Counted from the first letter of the stretch, positions 5,747 to 7,931 are shown. The stretch is 7,931 bases of DNA from a virus (IMGVR_UViG_2778261067_000005:1-7931), one strand, 5' to 3'. The notes: generated by a model from the letters alone, not told the origin. Made by a program: numbers and translations.

Positions 5747-5749
5747 ACG

Positions 5750-6259
5750 ATGAATAAACAATACGAACTGGTTGTTAAAGGGATAAATAATTACCCGGAT
5801 AAGATTACTGTTACTGTAGCGCTGGAAACGGGTGGGTATACGTCACTGTTGTTGCCAAATGTGGTGATTGATCTTGATCGTGTTGAAGGTGCCCCGCTGG
5901 AGTTTTACGAAGCTGAGGCGAAAAAGAAGGCGAAGCAGTTTTTCATGGATATTGCTGCCGGGTTATGTGAAGGGGATGAACAGTCACAGGAAAAGTGCCT
6001 TTGTTCCGAAGATCGGTATACCATACAAATTAACAATGCATATAACACGATACTGTCAGAAAAAGATGATATCGAATCACGCATTGAAAAACTGGAGAAT
6101 TGCGTCGTTGAACTGAATAAAAAACTGTCGACGCTGATGCCTTCTGAAGATGCAAAAAAACGCCGCGATGAGCAGTTCGCGGCGTTTTACGATTATTGCA
6201 TTGAAGTTACTCGCAGGAATTTTGTGAAGGCTTTTGAGGAGAGTAAATCTCTTCAGTAA
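5750..6259 (+). CDS. Hypothetical protein, 169 aa, AT-rich insertion between holin and endolysin
   Basis: ATG 3 nt after the holin stop (TAG-ACG-ATG), with GGGGTGAG upstream, suggesting translational coupling to S. N-terminal half looks beta-rich, C-terminal half is charged and helical (IESRIEKLENCVVELNKKLSTL...). No transmembrane segment and no motif I recognise. A long ORF in AT-rich DNA is unlikely by chance. Confidence 0.6.
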   Translation: MNKQYELVVKGINNYPDKITVTVALETGGYTSLLLPNVVIDLDRVEGAPLEFYEAEAKKKAKQFFMDIAAGLCEGDEQSQEKCLCSEDRYTIQINNAYNTILSEKDDIESRIEKLENCVVELNKKLSTLMPSEDAKKRRDEQFAAFYDYCIEVTRRNFVKAFEESKSLQ

Positions 6260-6467
6260 GCTTAATGGCGGACGCTGCAATTAATTCAGGAAGGTCCGCA
6301 AGGTCATCTGTCAGTGGGAATGATGAAAAATCGGCGGCAGTTCTGTTAAGAATTGCTTTAACTAATTCCTTTTCCTCATCCGGCAACACGTTGATTAGAG
6401 CTACGACTGCTTGCCTGAGTGCGATTAAATCAGCAAAAGTTTGTTTTGGTAGATTTGGATAATCCAT
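6207..6467 (-). CDS. Hypothetical acidic protein, 86 aa, convergent with and overlapping the 3' end of the 169-aa gene
   Basis: ATG (complement of 6465-6467) preceded on the - strand by AGAGGTG. Product MDYPNLPKQTFADLIALRQAVVALINVLPDEEKELVKAILNRTAADFSSFPLTDDLADLPELIAASAIKLTEEIYSPQKPSQNSCE. Stop is the complement of 6207-6209. The longer track ORF 6207-6692 would overlap the endolysin start, so the internal start is preferred. Confidence 0.5.
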   Translation of the reverse strand: MDYPNLPKQTFADLIALRQAVVALINVLPDEEKELVKAILNRTAADFSSFPLTDDLADLPELIAASAIKLTEEIYSPQKPSQNSCE

Positions 6468-6578
6468 AGTCACCTCTGTGTTTATCAGATTGACATACCC
6501 TGGCCAGTGCCCACCACTGGCGGGGTGAAGGCTTAACATATCCAGGGATTCGGAACCGATAAATCCTGATAAATATCC

Positions 6579-7112
6579 ATGAACGCAAAAATCAAATACG
6601 GCCTGTCGGCTGTCGTTCTGGCGCTGATTGCCGCAGGGGCTTCTGCGCCTGAAATCCTCGACCAGTTTCTGGATGAAAAGGAAGGTAACCACACCACGGC
6701 ATACCGTGATGGTGCGGGTATCTGGACCATCTGCCGTGGAGCCACCCGGGTGGATGGTAAGCCTGTCCTCCCCGGCATGAAGTTGTCGAAGGAAAAATGC
6801 GACCAGGTTAACGCCATTGAGCGTGATAAGGCGCTGGCATGGGTGGAGAAAAACATCAAAGTGCCACTGACTGAACCCCAGAAAGCGGGTATTGCGTCAT
6901 TCTGCCCGTATAACATTGGCCCCGGTAAGTGTCTCCCGTCGACGTTTTATAAGCGGCTTAATGCCGGTGATCGTAAAGGTGCCTGTGAGTCGATTCGCTG
7001 GTGGATTAAGGACGGTGGGCGTGATTGCCGCACACGTTCAAATAACTGCTACGGACAGGTTATTCGTCGTGACCAGGAAAGCGCATTAGCTTGTTGGGGG
7101 ATAGATCAGTGA
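6579..7112 (+). CDS. R: SAR endolysin (phage lysozyme, T4-lysozyme/GH24 family, phage 21 R21 / 933W R type)
   Basis: 177-aa product with an N-terminal signal-anchor-release segment ([17 protein letters not shown]) and the catalytic Glu/Asp/Thr region ([26 protein letters not shown]). Near-identical to Stx-phage R as recalled. Stop TGA at 7110-7112 overlaps the Rz start. Confidence 0.95.
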
Positions 7113-7576
7113 GAAGAGTAACCGCGATTATTTACGCTCTGGTTATCTGCATCATCGTCTGTCTGTTATGGGCTGTTAATCATTACCGCGATAACGCCAT
7201 CACCTACAAAGAGCAGCGCGATAAAAAAGCCAGAGAGCTGGAGCTGGCAAACGCAACCATTACTGATATGCAGGTGCGCCAGCGTGATGTTGCTGCGCTC
7301 GATGCAAAATACTCGAGGGAATTAGCCGATGCGAGAGCTGAAAATGAAACTCTTCGCGCTGACGTTGCCGCTGGTCGTAAGCGCCTGCGTATCAACGCCA
7401 CCTGTCCAGGTCCCGTGCGTGAAGCCACCGGCACCTCCGGAATGGATAATGCAACCGGCCCCCGACTGGCAGACACCGCTGAACGGGATTATTTCACCCT
7501 CAGAGAGCGGTTGATGACAATGCAGAAGCAACTGGAAGGGACGCAGGAATATATCCGCACTCAGTGTATTAACTAG
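7109..7576 (+). CDS. Rz: Rz i-spanin (inner-membrane spanin subunit)
   Basis: Strong similarity to lambda Rz ([34 protein letters not shown]... vs lambda [34 protein letters not shown]...). I place the start at GTG 7109, overlapping the R stop (GTGA); the ORF track's upstream TTG at 7091 is an alternative. Stop TAG at 7574-7576. Confidence 0.9.
7329..7514 (+). CDS. Rz1: Rz1 o-spanin lipoprotein, embedded in the +1 frame of Rz
   Basis: 61-aa product [61 protein letters not shown] with lipobox LVVSAC and a proline-rich body; closely matches lambda Rz1 as recalled. GAGGGA SD 8 nt upstream. ATG 7344 is an alternative start. Confidence 0.8.
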
Positions 7577-7599
7577 TATTTTTGTTATCCGGAGAATGC

Positions 7600-7824
7600 A
7601 TGAAGAAATTACTGGTAACCGTAAAGCCTTTTCAGGGAACAATTCCGTTCCGTATTTTGCAGCGTGGTCGTGTTCTTGTTGAAGGTTCGTTCAGTGGTAA
7701 ATGTACGCAATTACACTCCCGGACCTTTCAGGTGAATGCCACGAATGAAGAGCTAACCGTTGAGTGTACGATGAATGCCGCTAAATGCCGCATGGTATCC
7801 GCTGCATTACAGCCAGTGTGTTGA
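7600..7824 (+). CDS. Hypothetical small basic protein (74 aa) downstream of the spanins
   Basis: ATG at 7600 with GGAGA SD 4 nt upstream. Product MKKLLVTVKPFQGTIPFRILQRGRVLVEGSFSGKCTQLHSRTFQVNATNEELTVECTMNAAKCRMVSAALQPVC has no signal peptide and four Cys. I do not recognise the family. Confidence 0.5.
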   Translation: MKKLLVTVKPFQGTIPFRILQRGRVLVEGSFSGKCTQLHSRTFQVNATNEELTVECTMNAAKCRMVSAALQPVC

Positions 7825-7931
7825 GCGACCTTATTAACCATGCGCGGTATTGTCTGCGTATTACCGTGAAGGAGATCGGTGAGTAACATCGATGGAGATC
7901 GGTTCGTGTCACTTTCACAGAACCGTTTTTA

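Follow-up and report, generated by a model that had tools for sequence, protein, structure and literature searches.

A DUF1327 late gene and an interlocked antisense gene between holin and endolysin in a phage lysis cassette

RESULTS

Two convergent genes lie in a low-GC gap between holin and endolysin

The window (the whole stretch of DNA analyzed, 7,931 nucleotides of viral sequence IMGVR_UViG_2778261067_000005:1-7931) contains a pinholin/SAR-endolysin lysis cassette, recognized by an S21-family holin with a dual start, a lysozyme with a weakly hydrophobic SAR-like segment, and Rz/Rz1 (Table 1). The holin (S), named "class II holin family protein" in RefSeq, ends with a TAG at 5744-5746. The N terminus of the endolysin (R) is hydrophobic and rich in Gly and Ala, consistent with a SAR endolysin; R is followed by a PF03245 match (Rz), with an embedded Rz1 ORF at 7329-7514. 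S and R are separated by 832 bp (5747-6578) with a GC content of 0.43 (0.426 for 5747-6199 and 0.416 for 6200-6502), compared with 0.549 upstream of the gap and 0.531 for R and Rz (6579-7576). In the Stx2a-type phage VT2phi_272, the R ATG follows the S stop after 4 nt, leaving S and R directly adjacent, and it is measured against this layout that the gap represents extra low-GC DNA. An earlier note on this sequence had described about 830 bp of AT-rich DNA here and had stated that S and R adjoin in Stx-type cassettes; the gap is as described, and VT2phi_272 shows the adjacency.

The gap carries two ORFs. The forward one, ORF169, opens at an ATG at 5750, 3 nt past the holin stop. The reverse one, ORF86, encodes an acidic protein of 86 amino acids (aa) (pI 4.34), and its ATG, preceded by the Shine-Dalgarno sequence GAGGTG, lies 111 bp from the R start. 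The earlier note had read both genes in the same way. When the gap was shuffled with a Markov model, 0.3% of the shuffles contained an ORF of 169 codons or more and about 20% contained one of 86 codons or more, so that length alone proves nothing for ORF86.

Table 1. Coordinates of genes and sequence features at the S-R gap
Feature	Position	Strand	Basis
S21-type class II holin (pinholin family), dual-start motif M1/M4	5531..5746	+	PF04971, E 1.4e-32; PHROG holin families
ORF169, long-form YdfR/DUF1327, late-operon gene; N-domain, linker, C-terminal helical hairpin	5750..6259	+	DUF1327, phrog_2091
DUF1327 N-terminal domain, residues 1-82, beta-sheet plus one helix	5750..5995	+	AlphaFold2 pLDDT 63-87 over residues 1-70
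C-terminal helical-hairpin module of ORF169, about residues 106-169, ends KKRRDEQFAAFYDYCIEVTRRNFVKAFEESKSLQ	6065..6259	+	AlphaFold2 helices
Bidirectional intrinsic-terminator hairpin, stem ACGCCGCG/CGCGGCGT plus A/U pairs; U7 on minus, U4 on plus strand	6154..6188		Fold
Variable cassette relative to other gap types: ORF169 tail, ORF86, 5' leader	6200..6502		Alignment to L006
Convergent 3'-end overlap of ORF169 and ORF86, 53 nt	6207..6259		Read from sequence
ORF86, acidic, predicted three-helix cytoplasmic protein, PHROG 2572, RefSeq WP_001625288.1	6207..6467 (including stop)	-	Profile match
Shine-Dalgarno GAGGTG of ORF86, 3 nt before ATG	6471..6476	-	Read from sequence
Stem-loop in predicted ORF86 5' leader, GCCAGUG-GUGGG-CACUGGC plus outer stem	6498..6525	-	-25.5 kcal/mol, z -2.4
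Conserved 76-bp segment upstream of R; candidate promoter and R leader	6503..6578		92-99% identity in L006, L004, L036, L075, L030
Candidate sigma-70 promoter for ORF86: -35 TTTATC (6563-6558), 17-nt spacer, -10 TATGTT (6540-6535)	6535..6563	-	Inferred
R, phage lysozyme	6579..7112	+	PF00959, E 8e-25; phrog_7 endolysin

ORF169 is a long form of the YdfR/DUF1327 family

ORF169 scored 118 bits against the Pfam DUF1327 profile (gathering cutoff 25; E 2.1e-34), with residues 1-80 aligned to profile positions 1-80 of 93, and it matched phrog_2091 from end to end (E 1e-84). Its homologs, named "YdfR family" or "DUF1327 domain-containing" by NCBI, form 265 clusters and span lengths of at least 92 to 296 aa among the matches listed. 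An AlphaFold2 model (mean pLDDT 61) places strands at residues 5-14, 18-27, and 38-43 and a helix at 50-73, followed by disorder at 72-106 and helices at 108-129 and 133-168, in agreement with the beta-rich N-terminal half and coiled-coil-like C-terminal half proposed in the earlier note. The N-domain is 45% identical to that of YdfR from Escherichia coli K-12 and evolves under constraint relative to the allele of strain CFT073 (dS 1.51, dN 0.39, dN/dS 0.26).

The C-terminal half of ORF169 is a swappable helical module. Residues 101-169, searched alone, matched phrog_36381 and phrog_15975, and the module also exists without a DUF1327 domain, as a 67-aa ORF in two loci (L088 and L097) and as a 73-aa gene after Rz in two others (L171 and L173). 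In these 67- to 73-aa versions, the start is coupled to the stop of the preceding late gene.

The forward gene is native to this lineage. All 76 related loci with both flanks present have the order holin-DUF1327-R, and in each the gene begins directly behind the holin stop. The annotation of the K-12 Qin prophage agrees (essQ-ydfR-rrrQ), and a DUF1327 gene fills the same S-R position in phage BP-4795, Stx2 phage 86, and Stx1 phages. The 5' part of the gene was detected in 2,704 of 5,426 complete E. coli genomes, and of 436 phage records that contain this holin, 100 carry DUF1327. The proposal of a two-gene insertion thus stands as far as extra low-GC DNA relative to VT2phi_272 is concerned, but not for ORF169, which belongs to the slot.

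K-12 YdfR (b1555, Qin cryptic prophage), the only family member with experimental data, shares with ORF169 the DUF1327 N-domain and the position between a class II holin and a lysozyme. It differs in its length of 103 aa and short helical tail, in a stop that overlaps the rrrQ start, and in having no reverse gene behind it, whereas ORF169 continues through a linker into a 65-aa helical hairpin and ends inside ORF86, 319 bp from R. In K-12, YdfR residues 1-72 bind the catalytic half of RNase E (Rne 1-597) in a two-hybrid assay, Rne 1-598 copurifies with tagged YdfR, YdfR copurifies with RNA, and YdfR overproduction barely alters the transcriptome (PMC13232886). Among the papers searched, only that one reports experimental work on ydfR, and a single paper mentions DUF1327. 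By homology, the ORF169 N-domain may bind RNase E as well, an indirect argument that draws on the 45% identity to K-12 YdfR and on the same paper.

ORF86 is conserved as a protein

Residues 1-86 of ORF86 aligned to positions 1-86 of the 86-position profile phrog_2572 (E 3.6e-50). Both proteins therefore have a family, DUF1327 and PHROG 2572, respectively, although the earlier note had recognized none for either. Near-identical ORF86 sequences form 18 clusters, almost all from E. coli. Among 1.84 billion proteins, two distant homologs were recovered (P0139, E 1e-13; P0140, E 3e-11), both of which also match phrog_2572. Distant homologs, at 41 to 49% identity, keep the start position and a Shine-Dalgarno sequence, which in L171 and L174 is AAGGA at the equivalent distance.

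Third codon positions of ORF86 and of its antisense frame coincide, so the two frames cannot be separated by an excess of third-position changes. The coding question was settled instead by the distant homologs and by comparing the frames with BLOSUM scores, in which ORF86 beat the shadow frame of the opposite strand in each of three pairs (167 versus 139, 149 versus 94, and 207 versus 144). Across 14 alleles, 15 synonymous and 22 nonsynonymous changes were counted, with about 8.5 synonymous changes expected under neutrality. Constraint is modest, with dN/dS values of 0.5 to 1.2 between pairs of E. coli alleles that differ by just 10 to 16 substitutions. The start codon is changed from ATG to ACG in seven IMG/VR loci, and the stop codon is lost in four. 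On the comparative evidence of distant homologs, conserved start and Shine-Dalgarno sequence, and frame scores, ORF86 is a real gene.

These data bear on whether the gap holds decay products, with ORF169 a broken ydfR pseudogene and ORF86 a chance or fossil ORF without current function. The NCBI pipeline PGAP does label ORF169 a pseudogene ("incomplete, missing C-terminus") in EC2, CB6837, and CFT073, and the frequency of ORFs of ORF86 length in shuffles, the lost start or stop codons, and the pairwise dN/dS of ORF86 point the same way. The PGAP call is doubtful, however, because phrog_2091 spans ORF169 in full and homologs of 169 to 211 aa share the same tail; these forms keep their reading frame through in-frame indels and module swaps. 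The rarity of an ORF of ORF169 length in shuffles, the low dN/dS of its N-domain, the significant distant ORF86 homologs with the same gene architecture, and the occurrence of a gap 95.9% identical to that of the window in the complete phage genomes PhiR12_1, PhiR12_2, and PhiR12_5, for which E. coli K-12 MG1655 or E. coli C is listed as the propagation host, also count against decay. We regard this explanation as very improbable.

A bidirectional terminator and a promoter-like element flank ORF86

The last approximately 35 codons of ORF169 overlie the terminator and 3' end of ORF86. The 53-nt overlap of the two genes recurs in 72 of 84 further ORF86-carrying loci examined and measures 59 nt in the diverged pairs of L171, L174, and L227. 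Neither this convergent overlap nor the hairpin with U-runs on both strands at 6154-6188 had figured in the earlier note. The hairpin is GC-rich, with 12 bp, and lies 20 nt past the ORF86 stop, where it encodes KKRRDEQFAAF in ORF169. It folds with -23.9 kcal/mol on the minus strand (z -4.3) and with a z of -2.95 on the plus strand; a consensus scan missed it because its loop of 8 to 10 nt is too long. The hairpin keeps its place in L171 and in L174, where two of its pairs carry compensatory changes. Two unrelated reverse genes have their terminator hairpins within the forward coding sequence, and forward forms of 329 aa contain the hairpins with no reverse gene adjoining.

On the R side, the predicted leader stem-loop is found at the edge of the conserved segment before R, and the other gap types contain a hairpin like it. 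In four contexts, the candidate promoter retains its hexamers, their 17-nt spacing, and the upstream ATATTTATCAGG; among these is L171, which lacks an adjacent R and has a different spacer sequence. The candidate is weak, matching the consensus hexamers at 3/6 and 4/6 positions, and was not flagged by a consensus scan. It lies in the 76-bp segment that also forms the R leader, which has no recognizable Shine-Dalgarno sequence. This segment is common to gap types with different, unrelated reverse genes, and positions 6511-6578, including both hexamers, are retained at 85% identity in 395-bp gaps with no reverse gene; the promoter-like segment may therefore serve R or something else. As the earlier note had supposed, the forward gene is part of the late lysis operon, and the reverse gene has the appearance of an independent transcription unit.

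The wide distribution of this segment is also what one would expect if the locus worked at the RNA level, with antisense transcription from before R toward ydfR and S damping leaky lysis genes in the lysogen, by transcriptional interference or RNA duplex formation, and with the reverse ORFs as interchangeable passengers or stabilizing fillers. Its presence with unrelated reverse genes or with none, the terminator hairpins within forward coding sequence for two unrelated reverse genes, and the conserved 5' leader hairpin all fit such a device. The strong terminator after ORF86, on the other hand, would halt antisense RNA before most of ydfR and all of S, and in L171 the element and the gene lie far from S and R. 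Conservation of the ORF86 protein down to 41% identity, with start and Shine-Dalgarno sequence kept and the shadow frame outscored, also argues against mere filler, and we consider an RNA-level device decidedly unlikely.

The cassette moves among diverged ydfR genes in a variable slot

S-R gaps range from 312 to 1,624 bp in about 15 size classes, and in other phages the reverse ORFs of the slot are of at least five unrelated kinds, with one IS1 there as well, which bears out the expectation that variable cargo collects here. At least 80% of 6200-6540 is present in 294 of the 5,426 complete E. coli genomes, and ORF86 in eight phage records; the cassette also occurs in the Qin-like cryptic prophage of CFT073. 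Matches were confined to E. coli in a scan of one genome per species. A metagenome scan with P0139 gave no matches, and a second metagenome scan returned mostly E. coli-type loci and one diverged locus, L227.

Homology to the Stx1-phage type L006 extends over 5750-6199 (94.7% identity), breaks, and resumes over 6503-6578 (98.7%). The right edge of the intervening cassette is sharp (6502/6503). The left edge is fuzzy: DNA similarity stops at 6199/6200, yet the tail IEVTRRNFVKAF weakly resembles RKVMSRNLAECF of long forms. A clean, sharp-edged insertion into a long ydfR is thus not established. Between the window and CFT073, the N-domains have diverged to the dS of 1.51 given above and the stretch from hairpin to tail is almost identical. 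An identical ORF86 also stands behind a different forward form of 211 aa, and identical copies are paired with forward proteins that differ in the first helix. By these sequence comparisons, the cassette moves between diverged ydfR genes; because the 3' codons of ORF169 overlie the terminator and 3' end of ORF86, both travel as one unit in such recombination.

Two further pairs illustrate the architecture in this slot. Stx2 phage 86 (orf5/orf6) and Stx1a phage (a 263-aa and a 210-aa protein) resemble the window in combining a long DUF1327 protein, a reverse ORF, and the same 76-bp pre-R segment. Their reverse genes are unrelated to ORF86 (phrog_1853, 104 aa, in one case and a 210-aa ORF without a family in the other; hhalign probability <1%), and their forward C-terminal modules differ from that of ORF169. 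A shared superfamily of the small reverse proteins of the slot, suspected from a helix-LPxE motif, was rejected, since the hhalign probabilities for ORF86 paired with the 104-, 87-, and 90-aa proteins did not exceed 1%.

In diverged lineages, ORF86 is again accompanied by the C-terminal helical part of ORF169, as a convergent pair after Rz and before the terminase genes in L171 and L173 and in the S-R slot of a diverged lineage in L174 and L227. Such recurrence would be expected of an effector/antidote pair, in which the late C-module, or its 67- to 73-aa versions, acts as effector or toxin and ORF86, constantly made in the lysogen, neutralizes it; together they would act in exclusion, in abortive infection, or in the manner of a toxin-antitoxin system, with the onset of late transcription as the switch. 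The convergent overlapping pair is present in three diverged lineages and two genomic slots, divergence of ORF86 (41 to 49% identity) has gone along with that of the partner tail, the start of the small partner is coupled to the stop of a late gene, and other variable reverse genes of the slot adjoin variable C-modules. Across lineages, however, the partner module is conserved only where it lies over the ORF86 terminator and 3' end. With conservation confined to this segment, the linkage is physically forced, and the "pair" could be a by-product of overlap. Identical ORF86 proteins beside forward proteins with different first helices also speak against a matched pair, as does a further module, G, which is accompanied by the 104-aa reverse gene in some cases but not in others; the pairing of modules with reverse genes is therefore not strict.

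Profile and structure searches gave no significant toxin or defense match

The earlier note had placed the pair among candidates for defense, exclusion, or toxin/immunity systems. This idea gained no support from profile searches. NCBIfam and Pfam (E up to 10) gave no toxin, antitoxin, defense, or enzyme signature for either protein. In PADLOC-DB, ORF86 had no match, and ORF169 matched only PDC-S11, over its coiled-coil part (14.9 bits, E 0.003). Profile searches of PDB sequences returned no usable match, and Foldseek searches of PDB and BFVD with the ORF86 model, which consists of three helices (mean pLDDT 66), returned only hits with E above 1. Because the AlphaFold2 models of ORF86 and ORF169 are of low confidence, we make no claim about folds. 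Literature searches with ORF86 accession numbers and for genes between S and R gave nothing, nor did the papers searched yield transcriptome or proteome data on ORF86. The PhiR12 GenBank records name ORF86 "DUF1823," a Pfam assignment that was rejected at 15.3 bits against a cutoff of 25 (E 0.023, 30 residues only).

Both proteins are soluble (GRAVY -0.84 for ORF169 and -0.06 for ORF86), and neither is hydrophobic or enzymatic. A type II toxin-antitoxin assignment was rejected because the genes are convergent rather than codirectional or operonic and have no toxin or antitoxin family or structural match. The B. subtilis prophage loci txpA/RatA and bsrG/SR4 offer a parallel, with convergent 3' overlap around a bidirectional terminator and scope for RNA-RNA control. 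In those type I systems, a noncoding RNA serves as antitoxin to a small, hydrophobic toxin peptide of the membrane. The likeness in overlap and shared terminator lends the effector/antidote reading some support, but membership in this class was also rejected, since ORF169 and ORF86 are both conserved, soluble, helical proteins. Given the failure of toxin, antitoxin, defense-model, and structural searches to return a significant or informative match, together with the nature of both proteins, we judge an effector/antidote pair to be unlikely.

DISCUSSION

Our analysis leads us to lean, slightly, toward viewing the S-R gap as two interlocked, separately controlled units, a resident late gene (ORF169) and an antisense moron (ORF86). 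With its Shine-Dalgarno sequence, strong terminator, and conserved promoter-like element upstream, ORF86 looks like an antisense moron. It has its own terminator, is present in some and absent from other close relatives, and lies in DNA of atypical GC content (0.416 versus 0.53 to 0.55). It thereby resembles lambda bor and other morons of the Hendrix type, small antisense genes of the late operon near the lysis genes. The ORF86 homolog P0139 sits between Rz and the terminase genes, the place that bor occupies in lambda. Bor is an outer-membrane lipoprotein that is expressed in lysogens and has a serum-resistance phenotype. Unlike Bor, ORF86 has no signal peptide, and the late gene that precedes it extends over its 3' end and terminator.

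Under this two-unit arrangement, ORF169 would be made from the Q-antiterminated late transcript along with S and R and might act on RNA decay late in infection. ORF86 would be expressed in the lysogen from the candidate promoter and, after induction, should be shut off by heavy convergent late transcription and by pairing of the overlapping 3' ends. As a cytoplasmic, acidic, three-helix protein without a catalytic signature, ORF86 most likely works by binding another protein; the leading candidates would be its convergent partner, through the helical C-module, or a factor of the host or of an incoming phage.

Phages encode several modulators of RNase E, among them T7 gp0.7, T4 Srd, and phiKZ Dip. 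The DUF1327 N-domain has no sequence or fold relationship to these proteins and, unlike them, belongs to a late lysis-operon gene of temperate lambdoid phages. Should it share the RNase E binding of K-12 YdfR, it would join them as a phage protein that targets host RNA decay.

A bolder possibility is an unrecognized two-protein prophage switch, in which lysogen-expressed ORF86 would keep the late helical module, fused here to a DUF1327 domain that would bind RNase E, inactive until Q-dependent late transcription silenced ORF86 through antisense collision and freed an activity that reprograms RNA decay in the host or excludes or aborts competitor phages. The other reverse genes of the slot would then be alternative antidotes for other C-modules, and the slot would be a polymorphic effector/immunity locus. 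We think such a switch quite improbable. The suggestion in the earlier note that the pair forms an undescribed system survives only in a narrow sense, for a pair with no assigned function, and the ORF169 family was already known. The pair is not universal in the slot, has no known lysis role, and consists of two ORFs that behave as coding sequences.

The analysis has practical consequences for annotation. Long DUF1327 forms designated pseudogenes by PGAP have an intact frame and a full-length profile match and recur in complete phage genomes; the label "DUF1823" on ORF86 is unfounded; and reverse ORFs of the slot are unannotated in the Stx1a phage record examined.

More broadly, ydfR-family genes are present in prophage lysis cassettes of about half of complete E. 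coli genomes, and the family is a mosaic in which a conserved N-domain is combined with interchangeable C-terminal modules. The junction of holin and endolysin is a hot spot of recombination at which backward accessory genes stand behind a shared upstream element; ORF86, one of these genes, is interlocked with the late gene that precedes it. Should ORF86 or its partner prove to influence the timing of lysis, RNA turnover, the fitness of lysogens, or superinfection, a new accessory function would be added to those of Stx-type and other lambdoid prophages.

Gene order around the S-R slot

The window represents the late region of a lambdoid, Stx-phage-like prophage and is 100% identical to E. coli CB6837 over positions 1-7861. 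Its genes and signals are listed in the table.

Features of the late region, in order along the window
Feature	Position	Strand	Remarks
IS2 transposase end, inserted in DNA methyltransferase gene	1-1447
Two phage tRNA genes	1488-1649	+
142-aa protein with TolA C-terminal domain	1928-2356	+	PF06519, E 3e-22
sRNA family STnc100	2462-2675	+	Rfam full-length match, 199.9 bits (gathering score 47)
NanS-p-like sialate esterase
Small DUF1378 and DUF826 genes, before holin	4988-5492
Terminator-like hairpin	5463-5492		13-bp stem
S21-type holin (S)	5531-5746
Gap between holin and R (S-R slot)	5747-6578		832 bp
ORF169	5750-6259	+	YdfR/DUF1327 family
Strong hairpin	6154-6188
ORF86	6207-6467	-	phrog_2572 family
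Conserved segment preceding R	6503-6578		76 bp
Candidate ORF86 promoter	-35, 6563-6558; -10, 6540-6535	-	start near 6528
Lysozyme R	6579-7112
Rz, with Rz1 embedded within

At the left end, IS2 (IS3 family) splits a phage N6/N4 DNA methyltransferase gene; the window starts inside the transposase C-terminus, and the methyltransferase remnant extends to 1447. The tRNA with anticodon CAT is assigned to Met by ARAGORN and to Ile by RefSeq, and the second is tRNA-Arg (TCG); the pair is similar to ileZ/argN/argO, the tRNA cluster that precedes stx in Stx phages. The TolA-domain gene, named 'tolA' in RefSeq, follows the phage tRNA genes in DNA of low GC content (0.38-0.43), at the place occupied by stxAB in Stx phages. 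The N-terminus of its product resembles a signal peptide or that of a lipoprotein (MYCRAVPVLVLILASLTTGC), and we speculate that colicins or filamentous phages that use TolA could be blocked by a periplasmic decoy of TolA domain III. A 108-aa 'TonB family protein' follows Rz in the same prophage (L176 9669-9995). The STnc100 match separates the TolA-like gene from the NanS-p-like esterase. The DUF1378 protein has 59 aa and one predicted hydrophobic helix, the DUF826 protein has ~91 aa, and the terminator-like hairpin lies immediately upstream of S.

The earlier note had described an AT-rich, two-gene stretch between S and R, and this description held. GC content is 0.43 in the gap versus 0.53-0.55 in its flanks; ORF169, the 169-aa forward ORF, starts 3 nt past the holin stop; and ORF86, an acidic 86-aa minus-strand ORF (pI 4.34), has GAGGTG 3 nt ahead of its ATG, which lies 111 bp from R. 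Absent from that description were the convergent, 53-nt overlap of the two ORFs and the strong hairpin. The note's statement that S and R are adjacent is right for the Stx2a type, because R of VT2phi_272 begins 4 nt after S. In one comparison locus (L046, gap of 1620 bp), the slot holds an IS1-type transposase ORF (167 aa), further evidence that it tolerates insertions.

ORF169 belongs to the YdfR/DUF1327 family

Neither protein had initially been assigned to a family. For ORF169 this must be revised: residues 1-80 match Pfam DUF1327 (118 bits; cut-off, 25), and phrog_2091 spans the protein end to end. The order in the K-12 Qin prophage is essQ-ydfR-rrrQ, and a DUF1327 gene occupies the equivalent place in BP-4795, Stx2 phage 86, and Stx1a phages. 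We fetched 80 IMG/VR loci carrying the DUF1327 N-domain; in the examined set, all 76 loci with both flanks present read holin, DUF1327 gene, R, with gaps of 312 to 1624 bp. Of 5426 complete E. coli genomes, 2704 carry the 5' part of the gene, with a maximum of 8 copies in one genome. Not every phage with this holin has the gene (100 of 436 records do); among these 436 records it is found in most Stx1a and Stx2c phages, compared with 2 of 124 Stx2a phages.

Sequence comparison indicates that the family is a mosaic in which a conserved N-domain (residues 1-82) precedes varying linkers and C-terminal modules, giving proteins of 103, 110-116, 162, 169, 176, 183, 211, 263, 268, 296, 329, or 385 residues. 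The N-domain of ORF169 is under purifying selection (dS = 1.51, dN = 0.39, dN/dS = 0.26 versus the CFT073 allele), with weaker constraint in the middle region (dN/dS about 0.6 in the same comparison). Long forms are annotated by PGAP as C-truncated pseudogenes. This status is countered by the full-length PHROG match, by frames that stay open across in-frame indels and module swaps, and by a 95.9%-identical gap in complete PhiR12 phage genomes, whose listed host is K-12 MG1655 or E. coli C.

The sole experimental data that we found on this family concern K-12 YdfR (Göpel et al., RNA Biol 2026; PMC13232886): residues 1-72 bind RNase E 1-597 in a two-hybrid assay, tagged YdfR co-purifies with Rne 1-598, RNA is present in the YdfR eluate, and YdfR overproduction changes the transcriptome very little. 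Because the N-domain of ORF169 is 45% identical to that of K-12 YdfR, we infer that it may also bind RNase E.

ORF86 represents a narrow gene family

For ORF86, the lack of a recognized family stood in part: a Pfam search returned none, but phrog_2572 covers the protein end to end. A 'DUF1823' label in the PhiR12 records proved to be subthreshold (15.3 bits versus a cut-off of 25). The family is very narrow, with 18 clusters among 5.8 billion clustered proteins (81-100% identity over aligned regions). Clusters with a named source are E. coli except for one Salmonella fragment, E. coli was the only match in a one-genome-per-species scan of 185,579 species, and only 8 phage records bear the gene.

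Length alone is no evidence of coding, since ~20% of shuffles yield a chance ORF of 86 codons or more. The alleles provide weak evidence: few substitutions separate them, pairwise dN/dS ranges from 0.5 to 1.2, and 15 synonymous and 22 nonsynonymous changes compare with ~8.5 and 28.5 under neutrality. In each of three pairwise comparisons, the ORF86 frame scored above its antisense shadow. What proved decisive was a full HMMER scan of 1.84 billion representative proteins, which found two distant homologs, P0139 (E 1e-13, 49% identity) and P0140 (E 3e-11, 41% identity), that share the start position of ORF86 and have a Shine-Dalgarno sequence; these homologs indicate that ORF86 is a real gene. 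Seven IMG/VR copies (L140-L142, L145-L147, and L158) have ACG in place of the start ATG, leaving only an upstream in-frame ATG, and in four others (L109, L116, L123, and L136) the stop codon has become Ser and the ORF169 tail is also changed. These losses suggest decay or drift in some prophage lineages.

An AlphaFold2 model of ORF86 has three helices (pLDDT 66) and a disordered tail. Searches with ORF86 and ORF169 gave no significant defense model, toxin/antitoxin family, enzyme domain, or informative structural neighbor.

The 3' end of ORF169 and ORF86 interlock and move together

The predicted disordered tail of ORF86 is antisense to the final 18 codons of ORF169, and the DNA of the ORF86 terminator hairpin encodes the ORF169 peptide KKRRDEQFAAF. 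Among 84 further ORF86-bearing loci, 72 have a forward protein (169, 171, 176, 183, or 211 aa) that ends in CIEVTRR[NS]FVK[AI]FEE[SG]KSLQ and overlaps ORF86 by 53 nt; the remaining 12 are interrupted where the contig ends, have no N-domain, or carry a forward ORF that is frameshifted or truncated.

Segment 6200-6540 occurs in 294 of 5426 genomes, including CFT073, where it lies inside a Qin-like cryptic prophage. Between the window and CFT073, synonymous change is saturated in the N-domains, whereas the stretch from hairpin to tail is almost identical. Within ORF86, 12 of 258 nucleotides differ. The identical ORF86 is also found behind another forward form, of 211 aa. Together, these comparisons show that the 3' module and ORF86 have recently been exchanged between diverged ydfR genes.

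The convergent architecture itself is old. In L174 and L227, an extended K-12-like DUF1327 protein ending in FLQELKLSQQE (intact at 243 aa in L227; a frameshifted copy of a 174-aa form in L174) is encoded between S and R by a gene whose 3' end overlaps that of a convergent P0140-type gene by 59 nt. P0139 in L171-L173 has a convergent overlap, again of 59 nt, with a stand-alone helical gene of 73 aa, the start of which overlaps the stop codon of Rz; the two are placed between Rz and the terminase genes, where lambda has bor. L088 and L097 have, directly after S, a 67-aa version that lacks the DUF1327 domain. Across these lineages the forward partner is conserved only over the ORF86 hairpin and 3' end, and its upstream helices are unrelated, so physical overlap alone could explain the co-occurrence of the two genes.

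Signals flanking ORF86

On the minus strand, AAAACGCCGCGA...UCGCGGCGUUUU lies 20 nt past the ORF86 stop, with additional U residues after it (-23.9 kcal/mol; z, -4.3). This terminator hairpin is equally placed in diverged homologs and carries two compensatory base-pair changes in L174 (ACGCCACC/GGTGGCGT). At the other end, an element of ~45 nt (ATATTTATCAGGATTTATC-N17-TATGTT) is kept in the window, CFT073, L174, and L171; in L171 the spacer sequence differs and R does not adjoin. We read this element as a candidate weak sigma-70 promoter, with a leader hairpin downstream; a consensus promoter scan did not call it. The 76-bp segment also precedes R in gaps with unrelated reverse genes, and part of it is kept in short gaps without a reverse gene.

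This segment forms the leader of R, a gene with no recognizable Shine-Dalgarno sequence (…GATAAATATCC-ATG), and contains two GATAAAT repeats (11 nt apart) as well as the candidate minus-strand promoter. In K-12 Qin, unlike the window, the ydfR stop codon overlaps the rrrQ start.

Other occupants of the S-R slot

The other reverse proteins of the slot showed no homology to ORF86. L075 and L039 (gaps of 852 and 864 bp) carry a different, helical reverse gene of 87-91 aa with its own terminator, AAGCACCTCA…TGGGGTGCTT plus seven T, 25 nt past the stop codon. Like that of ORF86, this terminator forms part of the forward coding sequence, where it encodes module D (KSTPTKNEVL) of DUF1327 proteins. 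Both hairpins are present in the 211-aa and 329-aa forward proteins, the latter without any reverse gene. The hairpins may have come first and later served incoming reverse genes as terminators; alternatively, cassette remnants may have been absorbed into the forward ORF.

The 296-aa and 329-aa forms (L035, L051, L073, and L085) carry a C-terminal domain of ~120 aa (…EWECNRPSFVV…KNNKKQGLMKR…) and have no reverse gene beside them; the 84-aa reverse ORFs within their genes look like antisense artifacts. The 296-aa forms lack five codons (KRRDE) and with them half of the ORF86-terminator hairpin. In Stx1a-converting phages, the gap contains an unannotated 210-aa reverse ORF (L006 [Stx1_14040], 2254-2886, minus strand), the same in 14 IMG/VR loci, which overlaps the 3' end of a 263-aa DUF1327 gene by ~250 nt and has no match in Pfam or PHROG. 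The forward frame of L037 instead reads through the part shared with this ORF.

Interpretation of the locus

The pair had been proposed as an undescribed system inserted into the lysis cassette, a reading that is partly supported: ORF169 is a member of a known family, of uncharacterized function, in its usual place, and ORF86 is an uncharacterized accessory gene of a known class, the morons of lambdoid late operons. The locus is best read as a resident late gene of the YdfR family that interlocks through its C-terminus with the antisense moron ORF86. ORF86 would probably be expressed in the lysogen and then switched off by convergent late transcription, and its product probably exerts its effect through binding to a protein. 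A role as an effector/antidote pair or in exclusion is less likely, and nothing beyond the gene linkage spoke positively for it. With its mosaic S-R slot and the RNase E lead, the interlocked YdfR-family gene and moron form a locus that is open to experiment.
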